DNA of 64,000 bases from an uncultured Gammaproteobacteria bacterium (GCA_964352335.1 CAYGRO010000004.1:42970-106969); one strand, 5' to 3'; counted from the first letter of the stretch, positions 18,942-60,665 are shown. Notes: generated by a model not told the origin, from the letters alone. Made by a program: numbers and translations.

Positions 18942-18944
18942 TTC

Positions 18945-41719: not shown

Positions 41720-41810
41720 TGCGAATCTGCGAATACATTCGAATCTACAAATCATTACATATATTTGTAGATTAGTGTTCATTCGTATATTAGCATCACA
41801 CATTCGTATA
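41720..41810. repeat. MITE-like palindromic repeat, copy A
   Basis: gattcgaatctacaaat...atttgtagatt...agcatcacacattcgta. Confidence 0.6.
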
Positions 41811-42223
41811 TGAGGTATTTAGGAGTTGATTATGGTTCAAGTTATATTGGATTAGCAATGGGAGATGATGATAGCTATTTAGCTATGGCATTTGATACCA
41901 TTTTAGAAAAAGATGTAAAAAGACAATTGTCCGTTATTGAGCAAATTGTTTTAGATGAAGATATTGATCAAGTAATTGTTGGGTATCCATTGAGTCTTGA
42001 TGGTGGAGAATCTGATCAAACAACGGAAACAATTAGTTTTATCACAGAGTTAAGTGGAAAGCTTGGTATTCCAGTTGAAAAAGAAGATGAACGACTGACT
42101 TCTCAATTTGCACAAACTCTCATCAAAGAAGCAGAAGGCTCTAGTGCTCAAGATGAACATGCGCATGCTGCTGCTTCTGTTTTACAATCCTATTTAGATC
42201 GCATGAAAAACGAAGTTTCATAA
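41810..42223 (+). CDS. ruvX: RuvX/YqgF Holliday-junction-resolvase-like nuclease
   Basis: The N-terminus MRYLGVDYGSSYIGLAMGD. Confidence 0.8.
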   Translation: MRYLGVDYGSSYIGLAMGDDDSYLAMAFDTILEKDVKRQLSVIEQIVLDEDIDQVIVGYPLSLDGGESDQTTETISFITELSGKLGIPVEKEDERLTSQFAQTLIKEAEGSSAQDEHAHAAASVLQSYLDRMKNEVS

Positions 42224-42285
42224 ATCAGCAAGTAGGGATCATATAGCATTTATATAGAATGATCCTTGATATATGATCCCAGTTT

Positions 42286-43059
42286 ATGACATATAAAACC
42301 AAAGCCATTGTGCTCAAGAGTAAAGCTTGGCCAAGAAATGCTCGGTTATATACTTTATATTCAGAAAAATTTGGAAAAATAAAAGGCGTGGCAGCTGGGG
42401 TACAAAAAATCAAAAGTAAAGTCGCTGGTCATTTACAGCCTTTTACTATTGTTGAGGTTATGATGGCAAAAGGGCGTTCCATAGATCGACTTGCACAAAG
42501 TCGTTTTATGAAAGGTTATACTTCTTTTGGAAATGATTTCGATTCTCTTATTCGAGGATCATATGTATTAGAAATAATTGACGCATTAACCAGTGAAGGG
42601 GTAGCTGATTTTGAAATTTGGCAATTGATCGAAGAACTTTTTGAAGAATTAAATGAACAAAGTATTTGGGGAGTAGGACAATTTGATTATCATCAAAAAG
42701 AAAAATTCGATTTGCTGATTCGCTTATTTGCGCTAAAGTTATTAGATAGATTTGGTTTTTGTCCAGAATTGTATAATTGTCTAATTTGTAGAGAATTATT
42801 AAAACCAGAGGACTTATTTTTTTCTATTAGTCAAAGTGGGATGTTTTGTATTAATTGTCGGTCTGATCAATATCCTCATAAACAAGTTCCAATTGAATTA
42901 GTTAAATTGCTTCGTAGTTCATTAAAACAACCCTTAGCGCAGTTATCACGAGTCGTTGTTCCATCCGAATTACAAAAACAAACCATTGTGAATATTGATC
43001 AAATGGTCATGACACAATTACAAAAACCACTGAAAATTTTACCTTATCTTTCATCATGA
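42286..43059 (+). CDS. recO: DNA repair protein RecO
   Basis: N-terminal OB-fold sequence and the C-terminal Zn motif CLICR...CINCR. Confidence 0.8.
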   Translation: MTYKTKAIVLKSKAWPRNARLYTLYSEKFGKIKGVAAGVQKIKSKVAGHLQPFTIVEVMMAKGRSIDRLAQSRFMKGYTSFGNDFDSLIRGSYVLEIIDALTSEGVADFEIWQLIEELFEELNEQSIWGVGQFDYHQKEKFDLLIRLFALKLLDRFGFCPELYNCLICRELLKPEDLFFSISQSGMFCINCRSDQYPHKQVPIELVKLLRSSLKQPLAQLSRVVVPSELQKQTIVNIDQMVMTQLQKPLKILPYLSS

Positions 43060-43122
43060 GACACGTTTCGTGATACGTGGTTCAATATGGACCATGTACC
43101 ATGACACCCATGTACTATATTT

Positions 43123-44358
43123 ATGGCTAAACGAATTGTTATTTTAGGCGCAGGGATTGCTGGAGCAAAAGCTTTGCGATCTATTCACAAGCAATTTCAT
43201 GATGATAAGCAAACGAGTATAACCGTTGTTGATAAAAATAATTACTCTGCTTTTATCCCAATGATTCATGAATTGGCAACTGGGTCTGTGCAAGTTACTC
43301 ATTTAACACAACCAATCAGAGGACTGATTCATTGTTGTTTAGAACGTTTTATTCAAGCAGAAGTAAAAGGGATTGACCTTGATCAAAAAATTGTAAAAAC
43401 AAGCTCTGGAGAGGTCTTATATGATTATCTGGTTATTGCCATGGGGTCGACAAATAACTATTTTGGAATTCCTGGTGTAGCTGAATATGCTCTTGATTTA
43501 AAAACAATAAAAGATGCACTACGATTAAGAGAGCATATTATTTCTCGGTTTGAACAAGTTGCTCAATTATCAGCTGATGATCCGCATAGAAGAGACCTGC
43601 TTCATTTTGTTCTTATCGGTGCGGGTTATACTGGTGTAGAAACAGCAGGGCAATTAGCTGATTTATTTTCTAAAGAATTACGTGATTTATATCCTGAAGT
43701 TCAAGCCGATGAGCCAAAGATTACCATTGTGCAAGGCAATGATCGGATTTTACCAGTCTTGTCAGAAAAGAGCAGCGAAATTGCAAAAACACGATTAGAA
43801 AAATTAGGTGTAACTGTCCTTACTGGCGTACGTGCAACGGCTGTAACTCCAGAAGGGGTGAGTTTAAATAACGGAACAGTTTTACAATCACATAATGTTA
43901 TTTGGACATCTGGGGTTTTAGCTCGTGGGTTTGAGTTTTTTTCAGATGAGTATCTAGAAAAGGGGAGGGTAAAAGTAAAAGCCACATTACAAATGGAAAA
44001 ATATCCTGAAGTTTTTGCCATAGGTGATATTGCAGGTGTTATTGAAGCGGGTGGGCCACATCCTCAAACAGCTCAATCAGCTGTACAACAAGCTGCCATT
44101 ATTGGAGGTAATATTCAAAAATTATCTGATGGTGAACCTTTAACTCCATTTACTTATAATCATAAAGGAGATTTAGTTCCAATTGGCAATAGATGGGCAA
44201 TTGCAGAAATTAAAAAAGTAAAAATCACAGGTTTTATTTCTTGGTGGATTAGACGAACTGTTTATTTGATGGGAGTTATTTCCTGGTCTGATAGGCTTAG
44301 AATTGTTATCGACTGGACATTGAATCTCTTTAGTCAACGTGATACAACTAAATTATGA
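43123..44358 (+). CDS. ndh: Type II NADH dehydrogenase (FAD-dependent pyridine nucleotide-disulfide oxidoreductase)
   Basis: Two Rossmann motifs: ILGAGIAGAKA and LIGAGYTGVE. Confidence 0.8.
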   Translation: MAKRIVILGAGIAGAKALRSIHKQFHDDKQTSITVVDKNNYSAFIPMIHELATGSVQVTHLTQPIRGLIHCCLERFIQAEVKGIDLDQKIVKTSSGEVLYDYLVIAMGSTNNYFGIPGVAEYALDLKTIKDALRLREHIISRFEQVAQLSADDPHRRDLLHFVLIGAGYTGVETAGQLADLFSKELRDLYPEVQADEPKITIVQGNDRILPVLSEKSSEIAKTRLEKLGVTVLTGVRATAVTPEGVSLNNGTVLQSHNVIWTSGVLARGFEFFSDEYLEKGRVKVKATLQMEKYPEVFAIGDIAGVIEAGGPHPQTAQSAVQQAAIIGGNIQKLSDGEPLTPFTYNHKGDLVPIGNRWAIAEIKKVKITGFISWWIRRTVYLMGVISWSDRLRIVIDWTLNLFSQRDTTKL

Positions 44359-45032
44359 AAAAAGAAAACACAGCATTAGTTATTGGTAGTGGATTAGGTA
44401 TTCTTGTTTTTGGATCCCTCTTATTTAATGTCTCAAAAGAATATAAAGAAGAAAATCCCAAACCAATAGAATATCAAGGTCAGGTAGATGCATCTGGTGA
44501 ACCAGTAGACATAGGTGCTATTGCTACAATTGGTCAATCATTCATTCAAGTAATGGCTTCTTATGACCAAGAACAAAACCAGCCAATTAAACTAATGAGC
44601 GTTAATCCTGTTAAAAATAAATGGCAAGCAAAGTATGAAGTTGAACAGGTTTTTGAAAATGATCTTTCATTAGTATATTACTATACGGTAGATATAGACC
44701 AAGGTCATGTTATTCGTCACAATGTTTCTGTTTCAGATCGTTCTAGAAGATTGCTTTTGTCTAATCCAGAACCAGATTCTATTGTTGAGCAAAAAGGGTT
44801 CACAATAAAAGGACAAGTATTTGATGAGCAAAAACAAGTTATACTTTCTGTATTTGATAAAGAAACAGGTGCTGAAATTCTAAAGGATACTATTAATGTA
44901 AATTTAGATAATGATGCCGTATACTCAAAGATAGTAACGATTACTGATAATCTTTTTGGAGATTACATTTTACAAGTATCAGATGGGCAGTCTATTGTTC
45001 AGACTGATATTGTTATTACTCAATCAAAGTAG
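44355..45032 (+). CDS. Hypothetical N-terminally anchored protein, translationally coupled to ndh
   Basis: The atga start/stop overlap with ndh and an N-terminal TM helix. Confidence 0.5.
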   Translation: MKKENTALVIGSGLGILVFGSLLFNVSKEYKEENPKPIEYQGQVDASGEPVDIGAIATIGQSFIQVMASYDQEQNQPIKLMSVNPVKNKWQAKYEVEQVFENDLSLVYYYTVDIDQGHVIRHNVSVSDRSRRLLLSNPEPDSIVEQKGFTIKGQVFDEQKQVILSVFDKETGAEILKDTINVNLDNDAVYSKIVTITDNLFGDYILQVSDGQSIVQTDIVITQSK

Positions 45033-45077
45033 TTTTTTGTTAGGATATTTGCATGTTTTTTGATATAATACCTTTAT

Positions 45078-45752
45078 ATGCCAACACCGACATTATTTAA
45101 ACTCACAACAGATGAGAGAAAAGCTGCCGTAGACAAGCTTGTTGATGGTGCATCACCAAATGCAGAATTCTATTTATTACTTGTCTTATCAACGGTTATT
45201 GTGACCCTAGGACTTTTAATCGATAATACGGCTGTCGTTATTGGGGGGATGTTGGTAGCTCCAATTATTTCTCCCATATTAAGTTTAGCCATGTCGATTG
45301 TGATGGCTGATTTTGATTTACTTTTTCAATCTGCCAAAGTACTTTTGATGTCGATTATTGCTGTTATGCTCATTGCATTTTTGATTAGTTTTGCCTCTAT
45401 TGGACTAGAAGTAAATTCTGAAATTGCTTCTCGAGCAGTAACATCCTCTGAATACTTTTTCGTTGCTTTAGCTGCAGGGATTGCGGCTGCATTTGCCTTT
45501 GCTCGTCCAAGTTTAAGTGAAGCTATTCCAGGTATTGCTGTTACAGTGGCTCTCTTACCACCTTTAGTAGTTTCTTTTATTGCCATCCCATTACAAAGTT
45601 TTGAGATTTTTGTCAAGTCTATGGGATTGTTTTCTTTGAATTTATTAGGTATAATATTTGCTGCAACTATTGTCTTTTCGTTAATGGGGTTTTATCGACA
45701 ACGATCAGAGGCTGTAAAGAAGCTAGAAGAAGAACTCTCTGAAAAAACTTGA
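45078..45752 (+). CDS. Integral membrane protein (DUF389-like?)
   Basis: About 6 TM helices. Confidence 0.45.
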   Translation: MPTPTLFKLTTDERKAAVDKLVDGASPNAEFYLLLVLSTVIVTLGLLIDNTAVVIGGMLVAPIISPILSLAMSIVMADFDLLFQSAKVLLMSIIAVMLIAFLISFASIGLEVNSEIASRAVTSSEYFFVALAAGIAAAFAFARPSLSEAIPGIAVTVALLPPLVVSFIAIPLQSFEIFVKSMGLFSLNLLGIIFAATIVFSLMGFYRQRSEAVKKLEEELSEKT

Positions 45753-45942
45753 AATATTTTAGATAAAGTTGTGTATTAATAGGTGAAAATAAAGGTAATG
45801 TGCTCGTTGGTTTATTGCTAAACCAAGAACTCATTACAATCCTATGTCAAAAACCAAAACAGCAATTTTGCCGAATATTTTTGAAAAGGCATTATCTCTG
45901 CACAAGATAAAGACAGCTACTATAACAAGAACATATGTAGAG

Positions 45943-46497
45943 ATGTCAGATGAAGAACTTGTTTCTGAAGTACAAAAAGGTGACGAAAAAGCATTCGAAC
46001 ATATTGTACAAAGATATCAAGGGAAACTTTTTGCTTATATTATGCGATTAATGAATCATCGTGATGAAGCACATGATATTACGCAAGATGTTTTTCTAAA
46101 AGCGTACAAGCATATTCAACGCTTTGATACAGAAAGAAAATTCTCTTCATGGGTATATCGAATTGCTCATAATGAAACGGTCAACTGGCTCAAGAAAAAA
46201 ACGAGAGCAAAAGTGGAATCGCTCGATAGTCATGTAGAAAATGGATTCCAATTAGCAGATAACCTGAATACAGAAAAAGCATATATAAAAGAAGAAGACG
46301 GAGGAGTCGTACGCGAGGCAATAAATAGCCTGCCAGCAAAATATAAAGAAGTCATGGAATTGCGCTACTTAAAACAACAGTCCTACGAGGAGATAAGTGA
46401 AAAATTAGATAAACCAATTAATACTGTCGGAACTCTCATTAATAGGGCAAAAAAGAAATTAGCTTTGGCACTAGAGAATGCCTCCCAAACAACTTAA
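45943..46497 (+). CDS. ECF (sigma-70 family group 4) sigma factor
   Basis: Region 2 DITQDVFLKAYK and a region 4 HTH. The start is placed at MSDEEL. Confidence 0.8.
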   Translation: MSDEELVSEVQKGDEKAFEHIVQRYQGKLFAYIMRLMNHRDEAHDITQDVFLKAYKHIQRFDTERKFSSWVYRIAHNETVNWLKKKTRAKVESLDSHVENGFQLADNLNTEKAYIKEEDGGVVREAINSLPAKYKEVMELRYLKQQSYEEISEKLDKPINTVGTLINRAKKKLALALENASQTT

Positions 46498-46533
46498 GGT
46501 AAGTTTGTCGCCAAATGTTTCTCGTTTATTCCA

Positions 46534-47481
46534 TTGAATAGCGACCTCATTTGGCGATTCGTCTTTATGAAGAATCGACCAACCAATAAACAATTAGAAG
46601 AGATGGTAAATCAAATCTGTGAATCAGATGATTTTGATTGCAAAGAAGCAATTATGTCTCAAATCAAAAGTGGGCGCACACAAATGCGGTCACGTTGGTT
46701 GATTTTAAGTGAAGAATTTGGTTTGCGTACAACTTGGATTCTTACGGTATTTCTTCTTATTGGGCTTGTTAATCTCATCGCCTTTATTATCAGCCGTAGC
46801 CCAGAAACAGCCTTTTTAGAATTCGGTGGTTCTGGTTTTGGGGTTGTATTAAAATCTTTTCCTTATGGTTGGTCTGCCTTAGCCATTGCCTTAATTCTTT
46901 TTACTATTGTGGCAATGAAACGTTTTTCATGGTCCTATTTATTTCCATTCAAATTATTTAGCTTTTTATTGGTTGGGGGGATATTAACAGCTGGTTCTGT
47001 TGCTTTTGCAACAGGAGTAAATGAAAGTCTTTATAATAAGCTCATTGAAAACCCAGGTTCTGGTGATTCCTTATTAGCAAAATTATATTGTCTTTGCGCT
47101 AATAGAGATTTAGATTCAGATAACGCATTAATGGGAGAAATTTTAGATGCAAATAGTGAACAAATTATTGTACAAACGCCAAAGTTAGAAGTAGTAACAA
47201 TTAATTTAACAACCACAACAGAATGGATGGATGATATTAATCCACAAACGTTTTTCACGGTAAAAGTATTGGGAGTAAGGAATGATAAAAATACTTTTAC
47301 GGCTAGCCATATTAAAGTGCATGATGTTCAGGGGATGGACTTAGTTCGTTCTCAAGAAGATTGTGAAAATAAACAGCAATGGGATCGTAAGCGCGAAATA
47401 GCCGATCAAAGAAGGAATGCTGTTATTCAACCATTTACACCTGCCATTGGAACAGCACAATTAGTTCGATCGATTTACTAA
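46534..47481 (+). CDS. Membrane protein, candidate cognate anti-sigma factor
   Basis: It lies directly downstream of the ECF sigma gene. It has a cytoplasmic N-terminal segment with Cys residues, several TM helices and an extracytoplasmic C-terminal domain. Confidence 0.4.
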   Translation: MNSDLIWRFVFMKNRPTNKQLEEMVNQICESDDFDCKEAIMSQIKSGRTQMRSRWLILSEEFGLRTTWILTVFLLIGLVNLIAFIISRSPETAFLEFGGSGFGVVLKSFPYGWSALAIALILFTIVAMKRFSWSYLFPFKLFSFLLVGGILTAGSVAFATGVNESLYNKLIENPGSGDSLLAKLYCLCANRDLDSDNALMGEILDANSEQIIVQTPKLEVVTINLTTTTEWMDDINPQTFFTVKVLGVRNDKNTFTASHIKVHDVQGMDLVRSQEDCENKQQWDRKREIADQRRNAVIQPFTPAIGTAQLVRSIY

Positions 47482-47590
47482 TAATGATTCGAATCTACAA
47501 ATAGATCCGAATCCGCGAATGAATACTAATCTACGAATATTGTTAAAGAGGATATTTGCAGATTAGCATCACCATTCGTATTAAAATAAG
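47479..47590. repeat. MITE-like palindromic repeat, copy B
   Basis: atgattcgaatctacaaat...aatactaatctacgaatat...tatttgcagattagcatcaccattcgtattaaaataa. Confidence 0.65.
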
Positions 47591-47839
47591 AAGTGAAATA
47601 AAAAAGAAGTGAAGCAGTATTAGTGGTTGAAAGGTTGCTCCATTACCTTTCAGTCATAGCATTAATCACGTGGTGAGCAAGTCACACCCTCGGCTTGTTC
47701 ACGCAAAGGCAATGTCCCATTCGTCGTTTTCGGCGGATGGGATGTTGTTTTTTTCAAACAATTCGGCTTTTTTGTCAGTCACTATCAGCTTTTGCTATAC
47801 TAGTTTTACGTCCCACCATTAATGGGACTTTCATATTCT

Positions 47840-49957
47840 ATGGCTGAAGAAACATATACATTATTTCAAAAACCAGAAAACCATCATTTTCAAATTGATT
47901 ATGATAATGAGCTAAACGAAGAGCAATTAAAGGTTGTAAAAGAAGGTGATGGGCCTTGTCTTGTGCTTGCTGGAGCAGGAAGTGGAAAAACACGTACCTT
48001 GGTGTACCGTGTTGCTTATTTATTGGAAAAAGGAGTGCCTGCAGATAGAATTTTGCTCGTTACTTTTACGAATAAAGCTGCTCGAGAAATGATGGAAAGA
48101 GTAGAGCAAATTTTAGGGAAAAAACCAAAAGGTCTTTGGGGTGGGACATTCCATTCAGTTGCCAATCGATTATTACGCCAATACGGAGAAAATCTTGGTT
48201 ATACCAAGGATTTTGGAATTTTAGATAGTGATGACCAAGATAAGCTAATTGCTCAAATATATAAAGAATTACGAATTCCAAAAGAATCATATATTCCTAA
48301 GAAGCGGGTAATCAAATCTATTATTTCATTTGCGAAAAATAGCCAAGAATCTATTTCTGGAATCATTGAGAAAAATTATCCTTATCTTTTACCAGAGGTT
48401 ATTCCTTTAATCGAAAGTATTGCAACAGAATATGAATCAAAAAAACGCTATGCAAATGTCATGGACTTTGATGATATGCTTACTAATTGGTTAAAGCTTT
48501 TGCAAGAGCATCCAGATATTTCAGAAAAAGTTTGTACTAAATTTCAATATGTTTTAGTGGATGAATTTCAAGATACAAATAATGTTCAGTCTCAAATAGT
48601 ACAGCATCTAGCAAATCCACAAAGAAATATTCTGGTTGTGGGGGATGATGCGCAAAGTATTTATTCATTTCGTGCGGCAACTGTAGAAAATATTTTAAAG
48701 TTTCAACAAATTTACCCAGATGCCAAGCTATTTAAGTTGCAAGTCAATTACCGTAGTACACCTGAAATATTACAATTGGCTAATGAAAGTATTCGTAATA
48801 ATCAATTTCAATACGATAAACAATTAATAGCTGAGCGTGAGTCTTCTAAGCGCCCTGTCTTAATTGCGGCAAGAGATGCTCAACAGCAAGCTGAAATAAT
48901 TGCACAAAGAACGTTAGAGCTGAGAGATGAAGGGATGAGTTTAGACGATATCGCCGTTTTATTCCGTTCTTCCTTTCAAATTATTGAATTGGAATTAGAA
49001 CTAAATCGGCGAGGAATTCCTTATACGGTTCGTGGTGGTATGCGCTTCTTTGAACAAGCCCATATTAAAGATGTCATGGCGTATTTGCAATTACTACAAA
49101 ATCCAAAGAATGAAATTGCTTGGAGAAGAGTGTTTCAAATGTATGCTGGTATTGGTCTTGTAACTGCTACCAAAGCTTGGAATAAAATGAAAGAAAGAGA
49201 AACATTGGCGCAAATGCTTTCTGCTTTAGGTGAAATTGGTGGAAAAGGAAAAGCTGCTTCTAGTTTTGGGCGTATTCAAAGATTGTTTTTTCATTTAATG
49301 GAGGTTCGATCTAATAAAATAGGTGAACTGATTCATCGTATACTTGAGCAAAGTTATCAAATGTATGTAGAGAATACGTACGATGATGCCAAGGATCGAT
49401 TAGAAGATTTAGCTCAATTGGCAATTTTTTCTAGTAATTATACGGACCTGAATGAGTTTTTGTCAGAAGCTTCATTATCAGAAGGTTTTAAGGCGGAGCG
49501 AGCGGCAACAGCTAATGAGCCGGAAGCTGATGAAAAACTTGTTTTATCTACCATTCACCAAGCAAAGGGATTGGAGTGGGATGCCGTTTTTGCAATGGGA
49601 TTAGCAGAAGGACAGTTTCCACATTATAAGGTTGCAGAAGATGATAAACAAATGGAAGAAGAACGAAGATTGTTTTATGTAACGGTGACACGCCCAAGAA
49701 AACAATTATATTTGCTCTATCCAATTATGTCTCGCAGTTATGCAACGGGGGAGGTTATCAATCGTCCGTCAATTTTTATTCGAGAGGTAGATGAAGATTT
49801 GTTTAGAACTTGGAATATTTCAGAGATAGCAACTGAGCCTGTGATTGCACTAAAAAAAGAAGCACCCAAAAAAGTTGATATGATGTATGTTGACGAAGAA
49901 TACGAGTCAGACGATAATGAAGCTAGTAGTATTTTTGATATGATTAAGAATATTTAA
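47840..49957 (+). CDS. uvrD: UvrD/PcrA/Rep-family DNA helicase
   Basis: Motifs AGAGSGKTRTL, VDEFQDTN and the helicase C-terminal motifs. Confidence 0.85.
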   Translation: MAEETYTLFQKPENHHFQIDYDNELNEEQLKVVKEGDGPCLVLAGAGSGKTRTLVYRVAYLLEKGVPADRILLVTFTNKAAREMMERVEQILGKKPKGLWGGTFHSVANRLLRQYGENLGYTKDFGILDSDDQDKLIAQIYKELRIPKESYIPKKRVIKSIISFAKNSQESISGIIEKNYPYLLPEVIPLIESIATEYESKKRYANVMDFDDMLTNWLKLLQEHPDISEKVCTKFQYVLVDEFQDTNNVQSQIVQHLANPQRNILVVGDDAQSIYSFRAATVENILKFQQIYPDAKLFKLQVNYRSTPEILQLANESIRNNQFQYDKQLIAERESSKRPVLIAARDAQQQAEIIAQRTLELRDEGMSLDDIAVLFRSSFQIIELELELNRRGIPYTVRGGMRFFEQAHIKDVMAYLQLLQNPKNEIAWRRVFQMYAGIGLVTATKAWNKMKERETLAQMLSALGEIGGKGKAASSFGRIQRLFFHLMEVRSNKIGELIHRILEQSYQMYVENTYDDAKDRLEDLAQLAIFSSNYTDLNEFLSEASLSEGFKAERAATANEPEADEKLVLSTIHQAKGLEWDAVFAMGLAEGQFPHYKVAEDDKQMEEERRLFYVTVTRPRKQLYLLYPIMSRSYATGEVINRPSIFIREVDEDLFRTWNISEIATEPVIALKKEAPKKVDMMYVDEEYESDDNEASSIFDMIKNI

Positions 49958-50027
49958 ACATGGTTCATGGGACATGAATCGTTTCTGCGCCACGCACCAC
50001 ATTCCATAATCATATAACTCGATAATT

Positions 50028-50567: not shown

Positions 50568-50600
50568 GAGTCGTTAAAAAATGTGAAAGCCTCCCTTTCC

Positions 50601-51900: not shown

Positions 51901-52029
51901 TCTGAGACAACAGAAAAAATATATTTGCATAGTTATTAAACAATGTCAAGACTTGCTATTGAGGAAAATCTATGATAAATTTGAGAATAGTTATCAATTT
52001 AACAAGTTTTTTAGCTAAATTTAGCCAAA

Positions 52030-52413
52030 ATGTCTTATCAAACTAGTCAAAAACAAGCGATTTTACAGCATGTGATGCTTTCTAAAAGTCATCCAACAGC
52101 TGATGAAGTCTTTAAAGCAGTCAAATCTGACCTGCCTAGTATTGGTTTTGCCACGGTTTATAGAAATTTAGCGACTTTAGCGAAAGAAGGAAAAATCAAA
52201 GAAGTACAATTTATTGATAAAAAGAAAAGATACGAAGGAAATACCCATCAACATCAACATTTTATTTGTACAAAATGTGAACGTATTGTTGATATGGAAT
52301 TATCTGAATTACTCAATATCAAAGACGCTGTTACAAAAATGCAATGTCATGAGGTGACAGAATATAATCTCGAATTAATTGGTATTTGCGCTGTTTGTAC
52401 AACTGACCACTAA
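52030..52413 (+). CDS. fur: Fur-family metalloregulator (Fur/PerR-like)
   Basis: A winged-helix N-terminus, an HQHQH motif and a C-terminal CxxC pair. Confidence 0.75.
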   Translation: MSYQTSQKQAILQHVMLSKSHPTADEVFKAVKSDLPSIGFATVYRNLATLAKEGKIKEVQFIDKKKRYEGNTHQHQHFICTKCERIVDMELSELLNIKDAVTKMQCHEVTEYNLELIGICAVCTTDH

Positions 52414-52532
52414 CCACTGACGACTGACCACTGACGACTGACCACTGACCACTGACCAATGACAGCTGACTACTGACAATAAACAGTTTAATGTATAGTC
52501 AGTAGTTAATTGTCAGTTGTTCGTTGTAGAAT
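52414..52532. repeat. k-mer-iterated inverted-repeat spacer (cactgac tandem 7-mers then gtcagt)
   Basis: ccactgacgactgaccactgacgactgaccactgaccactgaccaatgacagctgactactgac...gtcagtagttaattgtcagttg. Confidence 0.7.
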
Positions 52533-53666: not shown

Positions 53667-53702
53667 TATTTTACGCTTTACCAATTTACGCTTTTACATT
53701 CT

Positions 53703-54347
53703 ATGGCCCTATGTGCCCACCACAAACATGATAATGTCGACGGGATCGTGAGAAACGAGCCTTGGGTTGATACTGAGCGAGATTTTGTGAAAGTTTGTCA
53801 TTGTGAGCTTTGTACAAAAGGGAAAGCCGATGAAATCATCGAAACACTTCGAAAACATTTTACAGGGACAACTATGCAATTAGTTGCATCACCTAGCCCT
53901 GGTTCTACTTGCAAAAGAGGGAATAGCGTTATTATTAATGACCAAGTGGCGGTGATTACTGATTTGAATAATTTAGGGCAAAGAATTGATAAAGAAGTAG
54001 AAAGACAAAGGTTACAAAGACAAGATCATCCAGAAGAGAATAAAGATGTGATTAAAGTTTGTTTTGGTCCTAGTTGTGGACATAAAGGAGCAGAAGAAAT
54101 CGAAAAAAATCTTTGGAAACAATATAGTAAGAATGATGATGTAAGAATTATGCGATGCGGGTGTACAGGAAATTGTGCGCAAGCAAATAATGTGGTTGTA
54201 AATGACAATATTATCAATCGCCAAAGTCCATTGAGAGTGTTCAATAATGTCGAAATTGAATTAAGTAAACAAAGAAAAGAAAAAGCTCGAAATTCTGGTC
54301 CATTAACCATGGATGAGGCGGAAGATATTTTGGGGTTGGGGTTTTAA
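53703..54347 (+). CDS. Tandem thioredoxin-like [2Fe-2S] ferredoxin (NuoE-like) protein
   Basis: Two repeats carrying C-x4-C and a downstream Cys cluster: KVCHCELC and KVCFGPSC...CGCTGNC. Confidence 0.55.
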   Translation: MALCAHHKHDNVDGIVRNEPWVDTERDFVKVCHCELCTKGKADEIIETLRKHFTGTTMQLVASPSPGSTCKRGNSVIINDQVAVITDLNNLGQRIDKEVERQRLQRQDHPEENKDVIKVCFGPSCGHKGAEEIEKNLWKQYSKNDDVRIMRCGCTGNCAQANNVVVNDNIINRQSPLRVFNNVEIELSKQRKEKARNSGPLTMDEAEDILGLGF

Positions 54348-54452
54348 AATACCTCCCCTCAATCCCCTCCTAACTTAGGAGGGGAAGGTACGAGACTGTT
54401 TATCTTGTTCCTCCTCCCCTTTGCTAAGGGGGAGGTCGGGAGGGGGTATTGA
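54348..54452. repeat. Pair of GC-rich CCTCC..GGAGG palindromes
   Basis: The sequences cccctcctaacttaggagggg and cctcctcccctttgctaagggggaggtcgggagg. Confidence 0.5.
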
Positions 54453-54482
54453 TCAGCATTATTCAAGTGATAAAACATAAAT

Positions 54483-54806
54483 ATGCCAGTACGAATGTAC
54501 GAAGAAAATGAAATACATGAATGTAAAACTTGTGGTTTAATGCTACAGGTTTCTTTGGCTGCTGTTCCGATTGAACCGCTTATTTGTTGTGGGAGCTTAA
54601 TGGCATATTTAAAAAAGCATGAAAAACCAGAAGAAGTATTTGATCTGACACAAAAACCAGTTTTACCAAATGCTAAAGAAACTATTTATACAAAAGGGGA
54701 GAAATATACTTGTTCGCTTTGTGGTATTGAAGTTCTTATTCTTAGAACATCTCAACCTATTGATATGCTCGATTGTTGCGGAGAAGGTATGGAATTAATG
54801 AACTAA
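54483..54806 (+). CDS. Tandem desulforedoxin-domain protein
   Basis: Two copies of the Y-x-C-x2-C-G...CCGE-x-M pattern: ECKTCGLMLQV...LICCGSLM and YTCSLCGIEVLIL...LDCCGEGMEL. Confidence 0.65.
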   Translation: MPVRMYEENEIHECKTCGLMLQVSLAAVPIEPLICCGSLMAYLKKHEKPEEVFDLTQKPVLPNAKETIYTKGEKYTCSLCGIEVLILRTSQPIDMLDCCGEGMELMN

Positions 54807-54842
54807 CTAATGTGTTTGTCTTGTATTAGGTACTAGACGAGC

Positions 54843-55427
54843 ATGCTATTTAAATCATTAAGACAAAAAATTATGGAAGACCATGATATGATGCATTTCT
54901 CTCCACGTTTGGTGGGAAATCCTGCTCCATTATGGAAAATGGACGGAGTTAAAAAAGAAGATTTTCACTCTCACTCACTAGAAGATTATAAAGGAAAATG
55001 GTTGGTAATGTTTTTTTACCCATTAGATTTTACCTTTGTTTGTCCAACAGAAATTAAAGGTTTTGATAAAGAAGTAGAAAAATTCCGAGAAATGAATGCA
55101 GAAGTTGTAGGTGTTTCTACAGATTCAGTTCATTCTCATAAAGCATGGATTGCTCGAGACTTTGGTGGAGAGCTCAATATCCCATTGCTTTCAGATATGA
55201 CAAAAAATGTTGCTTACGACTATGGAGTTCTTTTAGAAGATGAAGGAATTGCTTTACGAGGAACATTTATTATCGACCCAGAAGGAGTTGTAAAATACGC
55301 TGTTGTTTCTGACAATAATGTAGGACGTTCTGTTTCTGAAACTTTACGTGTTCTAAAAGCATTACAATCTGGTGACCTTTGTCCAATTGATTGGGAAGAA
55401 GGACAAGATACTTTAGGGAAGGCTTAA
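54843..55427 (+). CDS. Peroxiredoxin (AhpC/TSA family, Prx6-like)
   Basis: The peroxidatic FTFVCPTEI motif and C-terminal LCPIDW. Confidence 0.85.
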   Translation: MLFKSLRQKIMEDHDMMHFSPRLVGNPAPLWKMDGVKKEDFHSHSLEDYKGKWLVMFFYPLDFTFVCPTEIKGFDKEVEKFREMNAEVVGVSTDSVHSHKAWIARDFGGELNIPLLSDMTKNVAYDYGVLLEDEGIALRGTFIIDPEGVVKYAVVSDNNVGRSVSETLRVLKALQSGDLCPIDWEEGQDTLGKA

Positions 55428-55460
55428 ATCAATGGATCAATAAACAATGATCAATTAGCA

Positions 55461-55488
55461 AAAAGCGCTCGTTTGGGCGCTTTTTTGT
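55461..55488 (+). terminator. Terminator hairpin after prx; its 3' half is the left copy of a 19-bp direct repeat
   Basis: aaaagcgctcgtttgggcgctttttt. Confidence 0.6.
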
Positions 55489-55545
55489 GTTGACAAAAAA
55501 GAAAAAATATGCTATCATTTTCCCAGTCTTGTTCCTGGAGGATGT

Positions 55546-55794
55546 ATGACTCGACTGGCTATTAGCTACTATTGTGATGAGTTGGGCTCAGAGGCATTGG
55601 TTCGCTTGATCAAGCGATCCATGGATAGGCGCGAAGAGATTCGCGTTCATCTGGAAGGTCGTCTTCCTGTTATCTGTATTCCCACTCCGATGAACGGAGA
55701 TATATCACCTGACGGTAGCATCTTTTGGGTAAAAGCGCATGAGCGGTATTTCCTCTCTCGTGCATTGACCCAAGTCGACGTTTTTGTCGACTAG
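55546..55794 (+). CDS. Hypothetical 82-aa protein on a GC-rich insert
   Basis: A GGAGG SD is present. Its GC content is above the flanks. Confidence 0.4.
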   Translation: MTRLAISYYCDELGSEALVRLIKRSMDRREEIRVHLEGRLPVICIPTPMNGDISPDGSIFWVKAHERYFLSRALTQVDVFVD

Positions 55795-56013
55795 TCGCTC
55801 ATTTGAGCAATAGTTGTACTGAGCTAACCCTCAGAACGAATGGTCGACATTTGTCGGCAACAATACAAAGAGGTTAGATGCTTTGTATTTCCGCGTTTAA
55901 CGACGTATACAGGGAAACCTGTTTAACAAGTCTTGGCGGTCGGACTAAAGTGATCGCACTTCAAGCCAGAAATGGCTACTTGCAGACATTGCCTTGCGCC
56001 GTGTCTGCTTTTA

Positions 56014-56032
56014 CGTTTGGGCGCTTTTTTGT
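56014..56032 (+). repeat. Right copy of the 19-bp direct repeat cgtttgggcgcttttttgt
   Basis: Exact 19/19 match to 55470-55488. Confidence 0.7.
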
Positions 56033-56055
56033 TTTTAAATTGAATTCATGTTTAA

Positions 56056-56871
56056 ATGAAACCTATGTCAACAGAAAAAACGTGGGAACAATTTTATAAA
56101 AACAATGACGGGATCTATTCTTCGGGTCATTTTTCTGATAGGAAAGATATTGATGGGCAGATTTATAATAACTATCAAATAGCTTATCGAGAAGAATTAT
56201 TGAAGTATTCTGGAAAAGAATTAGCTGTTGAGCTTGGTTGTGGGAATAAACCAATTTTTGAAGTGCTGGGGCATTTTGACTCAGTTTACTATACGGATAT
56301 TTCAAAAGAAGCTTTGGTTCAAGCAAAAAAGGCATTTGAAGCATTGGATACGAGTAAACTAATAACAGATTCAGTCTATTTTGAAGAAATGAATGTAGAT
56401 TCTTTTTTACTTTTTGATAACGACTCTCTTGATCTCGTCTTTAATACAAGGGCACCACATAGAGATGAGACTTCGAAGGAATTGTATCGAACACTCAAAG
56501 ATGATGGAGTTTATGTTTATCAAACAATAGGGGAAGAAGATTTCAAAGATTTTAAGCTTTTGTTACAAGATGGTCGGTTTTATGATGATTATTTGAAACT
56601 AGGGAAAACAAGATTTCAGGTTGTAAAAGAATCACTTATCCAAGCTAGTTTTAATCAAGACAATATTGAGCTTATTTTTGATGATCGATATAAAAACTAC
56701 TTTGACTCAAAAGAAGAATTTAAAGAAAAACTTTGGTTATTAGTTGGTGACTTCAATTTTGATTCTCCTGAGCTTGATAAGGTTATCGATGAATATATTG
56801 ATTCACATACAAATGAAGAAGGGAAGATTTGGGTGGAGAATCATCGAATTGTTATTAAGGCTGTAAAATAA
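56056..56871 (+). CDS. Class I SAM-dependent methyltransferase
   Basis: The glycine-rich motif LGCGNKP. Confidence 0.55.
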   Translation: MKPMSTEKTWEQFYKNNDGIYSSGHFSDRKDIDGQIYNNYQIAYREELLKYSGKELAVELGCGNKPIFEVLGHFDSVYYTDISKEALVQAKKAFEALDTSKLITDSVYFEEMNVDSFLLFDNDSLDLVFNTRAPHRDETSKELYRTLKDDGVYVYQTIGEEDFKDFKLLLQDGRFYDDYLKLGKTRFQVVKESLIQASFNQDNIELIFDDRYKNYFDSKEEFKEKLWLLVGDFNFDSPELDKVIDEYIDSHTNEEGKIWVENHRIVIKAVK

Positions 56872-56947
56872 CCATGTCATTCCCGCGAAGGCGGGAATCT
56901 ATCTGGAATGATGAGATACCTGCCTCCGCAGGTATGACAGCTTAAAT

Positions 56948-57610
56948 ATGCCAATCAAAATCCACCCATCCTGGAAAAGTAAATTATCACAAGAATTTGA
57001 AAAACTTTACTTCAAAGAGCTTTCTGATTTTGTAAAAAATGAGTATTTGACCAAGCGAGTTTATCCACCGCCCAAACAAATGTTTTCAGCCTTTGACCAT
57101 GCGCCATTTGATAATGTGCGAGTAGTTATTCTTGGGCAAGATCCTTACCATGGGCCAAATCAAGCGAATGGGCTTTGTTTTTCGGTGAGTGATGGAGTGA
57201 AGATTCCACCGTCATTGAGAAATATTTACAAAGAATTAGAATCTGACCTTGGAATTGTTCCTAATGAATCTGGGAATCTAGAAAGATGGGCAGAACAGGG
57301 AGTTTTTTTATTAAATGCGACTTTATCAGTTTTAGCTGGCCAAGCTGGGTCACATCAAAAGAAAGGGTGGGAAGAGTTTACAGATGCTGTGATTAAAACG
57401 CTTTCGGATGAACGTGAGCACCTTGTTTTTATCCTCTGGGGCGCTTATGCGCAACAAAAGGGGGTGGTGATAGATACAAGCAAGCACTTGGTTCTTAAGT
57501 CGCCACATCCTTCTCCATTTAGCGCGCATAGTGGTTTTTTTGGAAGTAAACCTTTTTCAAAAACGAATACTTATTTAACAGAGCATGGTTTTGAGCCAAT
57601 TGCTTGGTAA
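56948..57610 (+). CDS. ung: Uracil-DNA glycosylase family 1
   Basis: Motifs [11 protein letters not shown] and HPSP. Confidence 0.9.
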
Positions 57611-57668
57611 GTTATCAACAATTGTTTGAAAAATGTAGAAATGTTAAAGTGTTTTCACTCGTCTCGTC

Positions 57669-58265
57669 GTGGGCATCGGCCCTCGGCGTTTTTCATTCCC
57701 GCAGTTAGATAAGGGGGGACAATTGACCGAATCGAATGACCGTATTTTGCCTGAGGAGTTCTACAAGCTTCTCATGCACTCCATAACCGAACAACTGGCA
57801 ATGCTCAAGATTTCTGTCGATGCGACAGAGGAAGACTTTGTTCGCCAGCTGCTCAGGATCATCACCTCACTCCATCAAGTTCGTCGCATGCTCACCCAGC
57901 ATGATCCGCGCTTGAAGGAGATGATTGGTCAGATCATCGAGGAAGATGACTACTCTGATCCTGAGCTCGAGACTCGGCGTGCGGAGCGTGATGAGTTGAG
58001 CCAAGACTTCCTCGACGACGTCGAGATTGACCCGACGGACTTCCGTCTGGCGGAGACGCTGGTGCTTCTCGGGCAGTCCACCGGCTCGCTTCCTCCTTTG
58101 GACACCATTGACTTGGTCCAAAAGTTCTCGCGAGAGGCACTTGGGATCGGGCTCACCGTGGCCAACCAGGCAGGGGAATGCGAAGAAGTTTTCGTTCATC
58201 GCATCGTCAGCGTCATCAACGGCGAGATGGCTAGAAGCAGTTCTGCCGTTAAGGCGCTCACGTAA
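57669..58265 (+). CDS. Hypothetical acidic protein in a GC-rich island
   Basis: GC-rich 198-aa ORF with a GC hairpin at its 3' end. Confidence 0.4.
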   Translation: MGIGPRRFSFPQLDKGGQLTESNDRILPEEFYKLLMHSITEQLAMLKISVDATEEDFVRQLLRIITSLHQVRRMLTQHDPRLKEMIGQIIEEDDYSDPELETRRAERDELSQDFLDDVEIDPTDFRLAETLVLLGQSTGSLPPLDTIDLVQKFSREALGIGLTVANQAGECEEVFVHRIVSVINGEMARSSSAVKALT

Positions 58266-58611
58266 GCAACCATCCCTCTCAGCTGGCACGCGCTGGCTGA
58301 GAGGGGAAACATTATTAGTTATCCACAGTTTGATTTGAAAGTAATCTGATTTCTTAAAAATTAGGCAATTTGGTCACGGCTATGAGTTTGTGTTAGAATG
58401 TAATCACTCACAAAGGATAACGTCTAGACCTTTCGTACCACAACATGTTGTGGTATTATAAACCCAGAGGTCACTATATCTAGCAAACTGGGTTTGACGA
58501 AAAACCAGATCGGACGAGACCCTCTCATTGATCTACATACAATCGAGAATACGTCCCGCGATGTGGTTTTTTGTATGGGAAAATTTAGTTTCTCCCAATT
58601 AATTGAGTTCT

Positions 58612-58735
58612 TCAACTGCGGTATGATTCGAATTTACGAATTAATACTAATCTACAAATATCATTATAAAGAGGGTTATTTGCAGATTCGAATGTATTCG
58701 TAAATTAGCATCACCATTTGCAATAAAATAAACAG
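58612..58735. repeat. MITE-like palindromic repeat, copy C
   Basis: atgattcgaatttacgaatt...aatctacaaatat...tatttgcagattcgaatgtattcgtaaattagcatcaccatttgcaataaaataa. Confidence 0.65.
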
Positions 58736-58743
58736 TTACCCCT

Positions 58744-60552
58744 ATGACACCATCTTCTCCTAATGCTTTTACAAAAACAGCTCCAACTTCTGTTGGGGTA
58801 GATGCGAAAAGAAAAGAAATTCCTTTAAGCCAAACAGCAAAAGTGGTTGCAGAGAAACGGTATTTAACGAGAGATGAAAATGGAAATGTAAATGAAACCG
58901 TTTACGATATGTTTAAACGTGTTGCCGATAATATCGCTTCTGGTGATAAATTTTACGGAGCAACCGATGAACAAGTAGCACAAGTTTCGGAAGACTTTTT
59001 AGAAATGATGGTTGACCTCGAATTTTTAGCGGGGATGACTTTAAGAAATGCTGGTCGAGAATTACAACAATTGTCGGCTTGTTATGTTTTACCCATGGAA
59101 GATTCCATGGACTCTATTTATACAACCTTAAAAAATGCAGCCAAGTTGCATAAAACAGGTGCAGGAATTGGATACGACTTTTCTAAACTTCGGCCAAAAA
59201 ATGCAGAAGTAAAAACAACTGGAGGAAAATCTTGTGGTCCAGTTGGTTTCATGAAGCTCATTGAATTCTCTTGTGACACAATCGTCAATTCTGCTGCCAC
59301 TCGTCGGGCGGGGAATATGGGGATTTTACGTATTGATCATCCAGATATTGATGAATTTTTATCTGCGAAAGAAGATAATTCTCAATTAAATAATTTTAAT
59401 ATCTCTGTAAACGGTACCGATGTTTTTATGGAAGCCGTTAAAAATGGAACAACCTACGATATTACAGATCCACATACAGGAAAAATAGTAGAACAAAGAG
59501 ATGCACGACAAATGTTTGACCGCATTATCGAAAAAGCATGGCGTTCTGCGGAACCAGGGATGATCTTTTTTGATGAAGTAAACCGATATAATCCAACACC
59601 ACAATTGGGGCCAATGTCTGCAACGAATCAATGTGGGGAACAACCATTATTCCCATATGAAGCTTGTAATTTAGGTTCTATCGTTTTAAATCGCATGGTG
59701 CAAAAAACACCAAATGGTTTAACAGAAATCGATTGGGAAAAATTAGAAGACCGAGTACGCAAAGCCGTTCACTTTTTAGATAATACAATCGACCTTAATA
59801 ACTACCCATTAGAAGAATTACGCAAAATGAATCATGCGAACCGGCGAATTGGTCTTGGTGTCATGGGGTTTGCAGATTTATTAATCGAATTAGGGATTCC
59901 TTATAATTCAGAAGAAGGGGTAAAGACGGCAGAAGTTGTCATGAAGTTTATCCAAGAAAAATCTCATGATGAAAGCCGACGGTTAGCAAAAGAACGAGGA
60001 AGTTTTCCTAACTTCAAAGGTTCTCGATGGGAACGATTAGGGTATACAGAAATGCGAAATGCCACTGTAACAACGATTGCTCCAACAGGGACAACAAGTA
60101 TTTTTGCAGGATGTTCATCTGGAATTGAACCAATTTTCTCTTTGGTCTATGTTCGAAAAAATATTTTAGACCAAGATAAAGATTCGTTTATGGAAGTTCA
60201 TCCGCTCTTTGAAGAAAAGCTCAAAGAAAAGTGGCTCTACAATAAAGATATTCTAGAACAAGCAGCTCAACTAGGTTCATTAGAAAAGGTAAACGGAATT
60301 CCAGAAGACTTAAAACATGTTTTTGTCACCTCACATGATATTGCTCCAGAATGGCATGTCAAAATTCAAGCGGCTTTTCAGAAACATACAGATAATGCCG
60401 TTTCGAAAACAGTAAATATGCCACATGAATCGACCAAAGAAGATGTTGCTAATGTGTATATGATGGCTTATGAGACTGGATGTAAGGGAGTAACGATTTA
60501 CCGAGATGGAAGTCGGGATAAACAGGTACTTAACTTAGTTAAAAAGAAATAA
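58744..60552 (+). CDS. nrdJ: Class II (adenosylcobalamin-type, NrdJ-like) ribonucleotide reductase, module 1
   Basis: The thiyl-radical loop TNQCGEQPL, the active-site Cys pairs SACYVLP and EACNLGS, and the CSSGIEP motif. 602 aa. Confidence 0.8.
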   Translation: MTPSSPNAFTKTAPTSVGVDAKRKEIPLSQTAKVVAEKRYLTRDENGNVNETVYDMFKRVADNIASGDKFYGATDEQVAQVSEDFLEMMVDLEFLAGMTLRNAGRELQQLSACYVLPMEDSMDSIYTTLKNAAKLHKTGAGIGYDFSKLRPKNAEVKTTGGKSCGPVGFMKLIEFSCDTIVNSAATRRAGNMGILRIDHPDIDEFLSAKEDNSQLNNFNISVNGTDVFMEAVKNGTTYDITDPHTGKIVEQRDARQMFDRIIEKAWRSAEPGMIFFDEVNRYNPTPQLGPMSATNQCGEQPLFPYEACNLGSIVLNRMVQKTPNGLTEIDWEKLEDRVRKAVHFLDNTIDLNNYPLEELRKMNHANRRIGLGVMGFADLLIELGIPYNSEEGVKTAEVVMKFIQEKSHDESRRLAKERGSFPNFKGSRWERLGYTEMRNATVTTIAPTGTTSIFAGCSSGIEPIFSLVYVRKNILDQDKDSFMEVHPLFEEKLKEKWLYNKDILEQAAQLGSLEKVNGIPEDLKHVFVTSHDIAPEWHVKIQAAFQKHTDNAVSKTVNMPHESTKEDVANVYMMAYETGCKGVTIYRDGSRDKQVLNLVKKK

Positions 60553-60665
60553 TTTGTTCTCAACATAATTTATCGAATCTACGAATTAAAACCAATCTAC
60601 AAATAAATCAATTCGTAATCCGTAGATTTGTCCTAATTCGTAGATTCGATACCTAACCACTTCAA
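60553..60665. repeat. MITE-like palindromic repeat, copy D
   Basis: atcgaatctacgaatt...aatctacaaat...cgtagatttg...cgtagattcgat. Confidence 0.55.

Follow-up and report, generated by a model that had tools for sequence, protein, structure and literature searches.

Palindromic arrays of a reiterated heptad as a dispersed intergenic repeat family of Patescibacteria

Four gene spacers in a 64,000-nt stretch of DNA deposited under the label of an uncultured Gammaproteobacteria bacterium (GCA_964352335.1, CAYGRO010000004.1:42970-106969; hereafter the window, of around 37% GC overall, to whose full length all coordinates refer) contain long imperfect palindromes that resemble each other, and this raises the question of what kind of element they are and how they came to lie at these sites. 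An initial annotation had described them as a four-copy family similar to MITEs (transposable elements of the miniature inverted-repeat class) or repetitive extragenic palindromes (REPs). The profile matches presented below place the four copies in a family of dispersed, palindromic, non-coding repeats found widely in Patescibacteria.

The building block of the family is a heptad, T.C.AAT, mostly in the form TACRAAT or T.CGAAT. Successive heptads are placed 8 and then 10 nt apart, resulting in a module of 18 nt (204 unit spacings of 8 nt, 131 of 10 nt, and 53 of 9 nt were counted), and the 7-nt linkers between the heptads are semi-conserved. Each arm carries 3-5 units, which read RCRAAT in the left arm and, past a variable loop, point in the opposite direction as ATTYGY; the innermost units have a median distance of 13 nt, the first and the last unit span a median of around 80 nt, and the element measures around 85-115 nt in total. 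A position table of 65 elements of other genomes gives the consensus ..AT.C.AATCTACGAAT..AT.C.AATCTACAAAT. The unit orders in the window are +++---, +++--, ++---, and ++---, with spacings of 8, 10, and 18 nt as in other loci. The tetranucleotide GTAG/CTAC recurs within most of the units, instead of marking the foot of the hairpin a single time. Concerning the core aatctacaaat / atttgtagatt proposed in the initial annotation, the 11-mer is indeed confined to the four copies, but it is part of the reiterated heptad T.C.AAT and not one inverted pair.

The motif AATYTRCRAAT has 13 matches on the two strands of the window, all of them within 41724-41773, 47492-47564, 58631-58706, and 60576-60646, against an expectation of 1.11 and a maximum of 5 in 100 dinucleotide shuffles, none of which reached 13. 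A repeat search grouped the left ends of the four copies as one family (64-100% identity to the reference), and all four copies fold into a long imperfect hairpin on either strand (z -3.7 to -9.6; 0 of 200 shuffles equally stable). The four copies were thus found where they had been annotated, and their description as one multi-copy, non-coding, palindromic family is correct, with every copy situated in a spacer between genes identified by Pfam. None of the copies is assigned a strand.

Copy A (41715-41809, i.e., the profile match at 41715-41800 and one extra unit to 41809) occupies the entire spacer between map and ruvX: its terminal GTGATGC includes the TGA stop (41717-41719) of map, and the ruvX ATG (41810) follows immediately after the last unit. 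Its left arm consists of three units (GCGAAT, GCGAAT, ACAAAT), the loop extends from 41753 to 41762, and the right arm of inverted units is followed by the extra unit ATTCGT (41801-41806). The arms at 41715-41752 and 41763-41800, as delimited by an inverted-repeat search, are 38 nt long and 79% complementary, the termini are inverted (GTGATGCGAAT...ATTAGCATCAC), the fold reaches -32.3 kcal/mol (z -6.3), and the profile built from Patescibacteria elements matches with E 2.7e-15 over its positions 4-106. Copy B (47484-47590; profile match 47484-47580, E 6.6e-11) lies between an unannotated open reading frame (ORF) of 315 aa (46534-47481), which comes after an ECF sigma factor gene, and uvrD. Its main hairpin (around 47515-47580) is preceded by a small one at the 5' side (47486-47513); the copy has a fold z of -6.6 and ends in a 3' tail (...AGCATCACCATTCGTATTAAAATAA) common to copy C; the near-identity of these two 3' ends pointed out earlier amounts to 81% over 42 nt in the repeat search.

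Copy C (58615-58735; profile match 58622-58715, E 1.2e-13) is situated in the 5' untranslated region of the ribonucleotide reductase gene nrdJ-1; a conserved leader (58318-58578) precedes it, and the nrdJ-1 ATG follows at 58744. Its arms (58624-58660 and 58677-58713) are 37 nt long and 81% complementary, with fold z values of -3.7 and -4.5 on the two strands, and it fits the two-unit pattern on both strands, such that its orientation is weakly defined. Copy D (60565-60664; profile match 60573-60649, E 4.6e-12) lies between the nrdJ-1 stop codon (60552) and the ATG (60730) of a fused nrdJ-2/3 gene; its arms (60571-60600 and 60622-60651) are 30 nt long and 90% complementary, the termini are inverted (ATCGAATCTACGAATTA...TAATTCGTAGATTCGAT), and the fold z values are -9.6 and -9.2 on the two strands. 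Inverted-repeat termini, a further feature in the initial annotation, are clean on alignment over the outermost 10-17 nt in copies A and D and less clean in copies B and C; since the whole element is palindromic, they are trivial.

We take the host to be a Patescibacterium, on the evidence of few markers: the best named homologues of NrdJ-1 (60-66% identity) belong to Patescibacteria, Uhrbacteria, and Kerfeldbacteria, and 5 nt separate the genes of S5 and L15 (37641-38680), where an L30 gene is missing. A missing L30 gene at this place is usual in Patescibacteria.

Scanning GTDB species genomes for a pair of 11-mers placed 18 nt apart yielded at least 115 loci; 77 of those listed are labelled as lineages of Patescibacteria or the candidate phyla radiation (CPR), from many classes. 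Among the loci listed are Parcubacteria, Saccharibacteria, Microgenomates, and Minisyncoccia as well as Doudna-, Kaiser-, Moran-, Buchanan-, Portnoy-, Zambryski-, Yanofsky-, Jorgensen-, Nealson-, Roizman-, and Staskawiczbacteria. The other loci listed comprise 14 labelled only as bacterium, 9 third-party metagenome-assembled genomes (MAGs) labelled uncultured Gammaproteobacteria or Bdellovibrionales, and 15 from other well-known phyla. Among these matches, inverted arrays are confined to Patescibacteria and to unlabelled or dubiously labelled MAGs, with 0 of 15 in the other phyla. The matched loci, from genomes of 0.29-0.59 GC, possess an architecture like that of the window copies and often the same termini, (G)CGATGCGAATCT ... 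ATTAGCATCG(C); the non-unit termini CGATGC...GCATCG are shared with elements from other classes. In clusters of at least 5 units, the forward-then-reversed unit order is found in 61 of 88, and the opposite order in 1. Fifteen matches in 2.9 million viral contigs, which serve as a background control, are all coding or AT-rich tandem repeats that have no inverted arm, and carriage by phages was rejected on this ground.

At the DNA level the window has no match among the loci listed in the GTDB scan, and the relationship was established with a profile hidden Markov model of 49 Patescibacteria elements (model length 114; window left out), searched with nhmmer. In the 64 kb it matches exactly the four window copies, over model positions 4-106 and with E values from 2.7e-15 to 6.6e-11; it finds nothing further in the window and nothing in 86 kb of four relatives, and it also matches two copies in a closely related contig (L121, see below). 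These full-length matches identify the window copies as members of the wider family, and the further copies that the initial annotation had anticipated for a true repeat family thus exist in large number in other genomes. Copies of the same genome have a median identity of 0.80 (up to 0.97) vs. 0.62 for copies of different genomes, and copy numbers amount to 4 in the 64 kb analysed here and to at least 9 pattern matches in MAG JAUSGQ01. The family, distinguished by its iterated 18-nt modules and by its conservation across class-level lineages, is apparently undescribed: full-text literature searched with the motif strings and with MITE and REP terms together with Patescibacteria, Saccharibacteria, CPR, or TM6 contained no description, most subscription journals being outside the coverage.

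Concerning genomic context, 61 of 64 elements are extragenic, and they lie between co-directional (36), convergent (10), or divergent (5) genes. Most are situated inside transcription units, a few nt from the adjacent stop and start codons, as are copies C and D. The 82 genes that flank elements elsewhere are diverse housekeeping genes that share no common function; ribosomal proteins are often among them, besides GroEL, DnaK/DnaJ, RpoB, NusA, EF-P, ATP synthase a subunit, H+-PPase, SHMT, carbamoyl-phosphate synthase, DnaE, and RF. The orientation of the elements is unrelated to gene direction (31 same, 37 opposite), and a replication-strand bias is absent (GC skew of the element strand positive in 29, negative in 41, p = 0.19). 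The most extensive set is found in locus L030 (MAG JAUSGQ01, contig 15, 2396-6050), where the ribosomal operon carries six elements, each in an intercistronic spacer of its own, from S19|L22 through L24|L5, with arms of around 85-89% identity and entirely different loops. Integron cassettes were considered for L030 and rejected, as the cluster is the S10-spc ribosomal operon (L22, S3, L16, L29, L14, L5); integron attC sites were rejected for the window as well, its sites lying between syntenic housekeeping genes and its termini being unlike the R''/R' core sites RYYYAAC / GTTRRRY. In a single locus, L098 (a Candidatus Moranbacteria MAG), half arrays lie in frame inside polA and fpg (4400-4440 and 5440-5480). 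The array in DNA polymerase I reads ATNYELDTNVRM, that in Fpg/MutM reads FVDSHTFADSH, and the latter lies beside another tandem repeat that is likewise in frame, (TTCCAAA)n.

Each of the four copies in the window neighbours genes of DNA repair or deoxynucleotide supply, namely ruvX-recO, uvrD, and twice nrdJ. A DNA-damage or NrdR-type regulon, in which polA and fpg of L098 might likewise be placed, was rejected in view of the 82 unrelated flanking genes elsewhere and of relatives that do not have the sites.

The age of the insertions can be judged from syntenic relatives whose NrdJ is 79-90% identical to that of the window. One of them (Logan ERR3484145, represented by loci L118 and L122; RecO 81% and NrdJ 90% identical) is syntenic from the ribosomal operon to nrdJ, and its around 38 kb contain no motif match. 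The map|ruvX spacer of L118, corresponding to the site of copy A, measures 11 nt and has no element; at the site of copy B, L118 possesses a spacer of 652 nt with an ordinary stem and T-run terminator and no element; in L122 the site of copy C is empty. In this relative the sites of copies A, C, and D are the three that can be compared with the window. The gap between nrdJ-1 and nrdJ-2/3, occupied by copy D in the window, measures 41 nt in L122, 46 nt in the P0056 contig, 6 nt in L138, and 11 nt in L139, in each case with no element, and L138 and L139 likewise lack the element. Spacers of the relatives at the junctions where the window holds its other hairpins (see below) are mostly 3-50 nt long. 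By contrast, L121 (JGI 3300023202), with an NrdJ 97% identical to that of the window, has elements at both nrdJ sites: its copy D is orthologous with identical outer stems, and its site C holds a much diverged family member within an element-bearing spacer of around 60% identity, next to a leader of around 260 nt that is 93% identical. An evolution of the elements faster than neutral was rejected, since the spacers of the window and L121 (around 60%, copy D around 80% by eye) and the coding sequences (88.8%; 97% of amino acids) differ to a roughly neutral degree. A Logan contig of the same organism begins inside copy A, where an assembly break is to be expected at a repeat.

The element-free sites in syntenic relatives, together with copies C and D in L121, show the elements as lineage-specific insertions that were gained within the species lineage of the window. 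The initial annotation had attached weight to the two copies bracketing the first ribonucleotide reductase paralog; this arrangement has no meaning for the paralogy, as the relatives share the layout, with element-free gaps of 6-46 nt. The elements evidently had no part in making the three reductase modules, which are older.

Whether the palindromes are maintained as RNA structures was assessed by the variation in their arms. The sole common variation in the units is at a CpG (TACGAAT vs. TACAAAT, and ATTCGTA vs. ATTTGTA in the other arm), and across all paired units its state is independent between the arms (G-C 51, A-T 22, G.T 37, A.C 30; odds ratio 1.0). When 15 elements representing at least 9 genomes are aligned, covariation is absent (RNAalifold term +0.61), pairing is no better than with shuffled partners (93.0% observed vs. 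94.2%; 500 of 500 shuffles at least as high), and pairs with a double change number 2 vs. 1.7 in the shuffles. A preference for wobble pairs on the sense strand is likewise absent (G.U vs. A.C 84 vs. 75). The arms are accordingly kept as arrays of a sequence motif, from whose inverted arrangement the hairpin follows, with no sign of selection pair by pair. Columns 17/96 of alignment A3 correspond to the outermost pair of units in the CCAATCTAC subfamily, and there 15 of 15 sequences have a mismatch at the CpG position (G.T 10, A.C 5); these columns are never G-C or A-T, though both states occur on each arm, which may reflect shared ancestry and the small number of sequences.

No Rfam family matches the elements at gathering score, and permissive E values (up to 1-5) yield only generic hairpin models of miRNA-precursor type below threshold; a known RNA family was rejected accordingly. 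Equally, a promoter or an intrinsic terminator was rejected: there are no promoter consensus calls in the elements, and the main hairpins have no U-tract (the element tails are TATATG, TATTAAAA, CAATAAAA, and ATACCTAA) and received no terminator call, the sole overlap being a weak minus-strand call with the 5' part of copy B.

We consider it about an even chance (roughly 0.5) that the elements are a REP/MITE-like selfish palindromic repeat, copied or moved by a factor that reads the heptads; we infer both the selfish nature and a copying or moving protein that acts in trans. The elements would accordingly be selfish or at most mildly useful DNA, and the protein would recognize the reiterated heptads. 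Because target-site duplications are missing, a hairpin or single-stranded DNA route (HUH, REP-RAYT-like) or a route by recombination or gene conversion would be likelier than DDE cut-and-paste transposition. Elements would persist where a hairpin with no U-tract is harmless, in spacers inside or after operons; there they would be co-transcribed and fold as a long hairpin, and processing or stability of the mRNA could be incidentally affected. The initial reading as a MITE or REP-like element stands insofar as close relatives possess empty sites, as is expected for inserted DNA; its MITE-specific features are not supported.

Several observations weigh against a selfish mobile repeat. In 64 elements, target-site duplications, which the initial annotation suggested to look for, are not in excess over shuffled flank pairings (abutting direct repeats observed vs. 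shuffled: 3-mers 10 vs. 11.1, 4-mers 5 vs. 3.9, at least 5-mers 0 vs. 1.3), and none is visible on comparison of filled and empty sites of the window. The cognate transposase sought for the same reason was found neither among around 64 scanned ORFs of the window (several short or unannotated ones being unscanned), where transposases, recombinases, IS200/IS605 TnpA, and RAYT were looked for, nor among the 82 flanking genes of other genomes, which have no transposase, recombinase, or RAYT domain; the sequence covered was the 64-kb window and, for the other genomes, pieces of 8 kb. A longer autonomous element with the same ends was not seen either; in L098, a forward and a reversed array that stand alone at a distance of 1 kb were rejected as such a parent, since they are the in-frame arrays in polA and fpg. 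Metagenome scans with the patterns of copies A, B, and C gave no further copies, and the pairwise identity of the window copies (69-74%) indicates no recent burst here. Furthermore, ribosomal-protein operons are over-represented among the element sites, which may indicate that some function is selected; L115, L038, and L074 possess direct-only arrays, with up to 10 units, such that the palindrome is not obligatory; and the presence of the same heptad, spacing, and termini across classes and from 0.29 to 0.59 GC fits recognition by a conserved host protein equally well.

This last point leads to a group of alternatives in which the heptads serve a resident protein. That the arrays are dispersed recognition sites of a sequence-specific protein conserved across Patescibacteria, either a domesticated hairpin/single-stranded DNA recombinase or a host factor, is a tentative proposal that we would not favour at present; if true, it would represent a phylum-wide cis/trans system that is so far undescribed, and a host factor might process or insulate the long transcripts of ribosomal-protein operons or organise the chromosome. 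In the more specific form of a host cis-element, with iteron-like arrays for a conserved DNA-binding protein (a regulator, a nucleoid or partition-type protein, or a DNA-uptake signal) that binds as a dimer to the two direct heptads of each 18-nt module, the proposal is rather doubtful. The sharing of heptad, 8+10 spacing, and termini by very distant classes speaks for it, as do arms conserved as sequence and not by pair, the direct-only arrays, the immateriality of orientation relative to genes, the constrained order of the arms (61 forward-then-reversed vs. 1 reverse), and the repair or deoxynucleotide genes next to the four window copies. However, orthologous sites are not conserved and close syntenic relatives have none of the four, the 82 flanking genes elsewhere share no function, and elements occur between convergent genes and in frame in polA and fpg; an uptake signal is further contradicted by the lack of single dispersed motifs, 13 of 13 window matches being within elements. 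A role at the RNA level, as an intercistronic processing site, mRNA stabiliser, or factor-dependent terminator in operons, like REPs in E. coli, is unlikely. Very stable hairpins form on both strands, transcription units enclose copies C and D as well as most of the elements elsewhere, and S10-spc spacers hold hairpins in independent lineages, six of them of the heptad family in L030 and others, built of different units, in the window spacers S12|S7, L23|L2, L22|S3, S3|L16, L24|L5, S8|L6, and L15|secY. Against this stand the lack of compensatory changes, the pairing no better than with shuffled partners, the independence of variable positions between arms, the missing bias of G.U over A.C on the sense strand, and the absence of a U-tract, terminator call, or Rfam family; moreover, the elements are dispensable in close relatives, and direct-only arrays are unable to form the hairpin. 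Binding by a host protein and an RNA role would be the more interesting outcomes.

The hairpins of other units are also the basis of the suggestion that the elements arose locally and not by transposition, as slippage repeats made palindromic by template switching, with a merely convergent likeness between genomes. The window holds many further hairpins whose arms consist of unrelated 7-9-nt units in tandem, its 64 kb contain 11 long local inverted repeats vs. 2 in 86 kb of relatives, and the S8|L6 hairpin is present in both the window and L118 with different units. Nevertheless, we regard this origin as improbable for the heptad family: convergence cannot explain full-length profile matches to elements of other classes with E 1e-11 to 1e-15, the termini CGATGC...GCATCG, and the 18-nt module, and the other unit types of the window are nearly absent from 800 kb of Patescibacteria loci vs. 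80 clusters of the T.C.AAT type, for which these loci had been selected. A guide-RNA array of the TIGR-Tas (tandem interspaced guide RNA) or CRISPR kind is suggested by the frequency of TIGR arrays in Patescibacteria and by their short alternating repeats (PMC12045711), but is effectively refuted by anatomy: such arrays have a 36-nt period, variable 9-nt spacers, and 5-15 head-to-tail repeats beside a Tas gene, whereas the arrays here have a period of 18 nt, semi-conserved linkers, and an inverted arrangement, and the scanned ORFs of the window include no Nop-domain gene.

Besides the heptad family, the window contains a number of other features. The hairpins of unrelated tandem 7-9-nt units are of GTAAA, CAGTG, AGCTAC/AGCCAC, ACTGAC, and GTCAA types, some of which recur at 2-4 sites, and most of these hairpins are missing from L118. 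They lie mostly within the S10-spc ribosomal operon and are found in the spacers S12|S7 (23782-23862), L23|L2 (31059-31172), L22|S3 (32854-32936), S3|L16 (33675-33755), L24|L5 (35345-35426), S8|L6 (36636-36714), L15|secY (38681-38762), and adk|map (40838-40939), and in ruvX|recO and recO|ndh; coordinates of such hairpins include 23270-23353, 28868-28925, 42235-42280, and 43060-43115. The ribosomal-operon hairpins of the window and the six elements of L030 together suggest that long, highly expressed operons either attract, tolerate, or benefit from such hairpins. A tandem array of around 11 copies of ACTGACC (52402-52477, within 52402-52527) starts in the last codons of fur (ORF 52030-52413) and is followed by an inverted partial copy, which results in a hairpin; it resembles the short tandemly repeated repetitive (STRR) heptamers of cyanobacteria and the TAACTGA repeats of Beggiatoaceae (PMC4679880). 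A GC-rich palindrome type, CCCCTCC / GGAGGGG, occurs at 18947-19037, 54348-54450, 21690-21860, and 9175-9210; these palindromes are very stable (-63 kcal/mol for 18942-19064), and a long-range inverted match connects 21701-21729 with 54423-54451. One ORF (16710-18146) contains two LOG/'lysine decarboxylase'-type domains of around 75% DNA identity, a tandem duplication with a spacing of 660 nt.

Three class II ribonucleotide reductase modules follow each other in a row, nrdJ-1 (58744-60552, 602 aa) and two modules fused in one ORF, which starts with the ATG at 60730 and runs past the window end (64000); in relatives the fused protein measures 1466-1501 aa with a terminal TSCPD domain, and the layout of nrdJ-1 and fused nrdJ-2/3 is conserved in four relatives. 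The leader upstream of nrdJ-1 (58318-58578, around 260 nt), kept also in L122, contains a perfect DnaA-box-like TTATCCACA, a promoter-like TGGTCA-17-TAGAAT, and the palindrome CCACAACATGTTGTGG, which we take to be NrdR-box-like; it holds a stem with a T-run just before copy C and has no Rfam match. Between copy B and uvrD (47600-47790) lies a structured region of around 170-190 nt with three strong stems, which ends in GGGATGTTGTTTTTTT, is conserved in L118 (around 15250-15420), and has no Rfam match; this region may encode a small RNA or constitute a leader.

Patescibacteria genomes are among the smallest and most streamlined, such that spacer-filling elements of 85-115 nt, even in ribosomal operons, are unexpected, and the occurrence of the same 18-nt module across class-level lineages is the least expected feature. 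If selfish, the family would constitute a REP-like element of unusual iterated architecture and would serve as a marker of recent gene flow and in the typing of strains of uncultivated bacteria; if bound by a conserved protein, it would point to a new piece of Patescibacteria biology. In practical terms, the elements break assemblies, can create spurious ORFs (58494-58703), and can hide real start sites, and masking them would help the annotation of MAGs.

Among known systems, TIGR arrays, in which each 36-nt unit consists of an edge repeat, a 9-nt spacer A, a loop repeat, and a 9-nt spacer B next to the gene of the Nop-domain protein Tas (PMC12045711), share with the heptad family short repeats, a period related to 9 nt, and their commonness in Patescibacteria. 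Cyanobacterial STRR heptamers, small dispersed repeats, and the direct TAACTGA repeats of Beggiatoaceae (PMC4679880) are similar in being intergenic arrays of 7-nt units that sometimes form hairpins, with several families per genome and no known enzyme; they are mostly contiguous direct heptamers of 7-nt period, whereas the heptad family possesses 8+10 spacing, an inverted arrangement, and defined termini, and belongs to a different phylum. With bacterial MITEs such as Correia of Neisseria and Nezha of cyanobacteria it has in common a length of around 100 nt, the lack of coding capacity, inverted termini, multiple copies, presence/absence differences between relatives, and frequent co-transcription with neighbours. 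It differs from them in that target-site duplications are not in excess and no parent insertion sequence with matching ends was seen; moreover, MITEs consist of terminal repeats around unrelated DNA, whereas the heptad element is a palindrome throughout, made of internal repeats.

Palindromic elements of Rickettsia can lie in frame inside protein-coding genes. They resemble the heptad family as palindromes of around 100 nt in small genomes of host-dependent bacteria and by in-gene, in-frame copies; however, they are not built of reiterated heptads, no sequence similarity is evident, and the in-gene copies of the heptad family are half arrays at one locus. Ribbon-helix-helix proteins, such as omega of pSM19035 and those of the ParR/ParG centromeres, bind as cooperative small dimers to arrays of direct and inverted 7-11 bp units. 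This is a functional analogy only, as those arrays are single regulatory or centromere loci of plasmids beside their own genes, whereas the heptad arrays are dispersed chromosomal copies among housekeeping genes.

The REPs and bacterial interspersed mosaic elements of Enterobacteria and Pseudomonas, associated with RAYT proteins of the Y1/HUH type, differ from the heptad family in several respects: a REP consists of one palindrome of 20-40 nt that has a GTAG-type head, whereas the heptad elements measure 85-115 nt with 3-5 heptads per arm; REP motifs differ between species, whereas the heptad motif is common to class-level lineages; and no RAYT was found for the heptad family in the window and in the 8-kb pieces of other genomes. 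The two are similar in that both are short extragenic imperfect palindromes of multiple copies, situated between co-directional and convergent genes and inside operons, with no target-site duplication, with species-specific subfamilies, and with co-transcribed hairpins, and the tetranucleotide GTAG/CTAC is also contained in the unit of the heptad family (ATTCGTAG / CTACGAAT).

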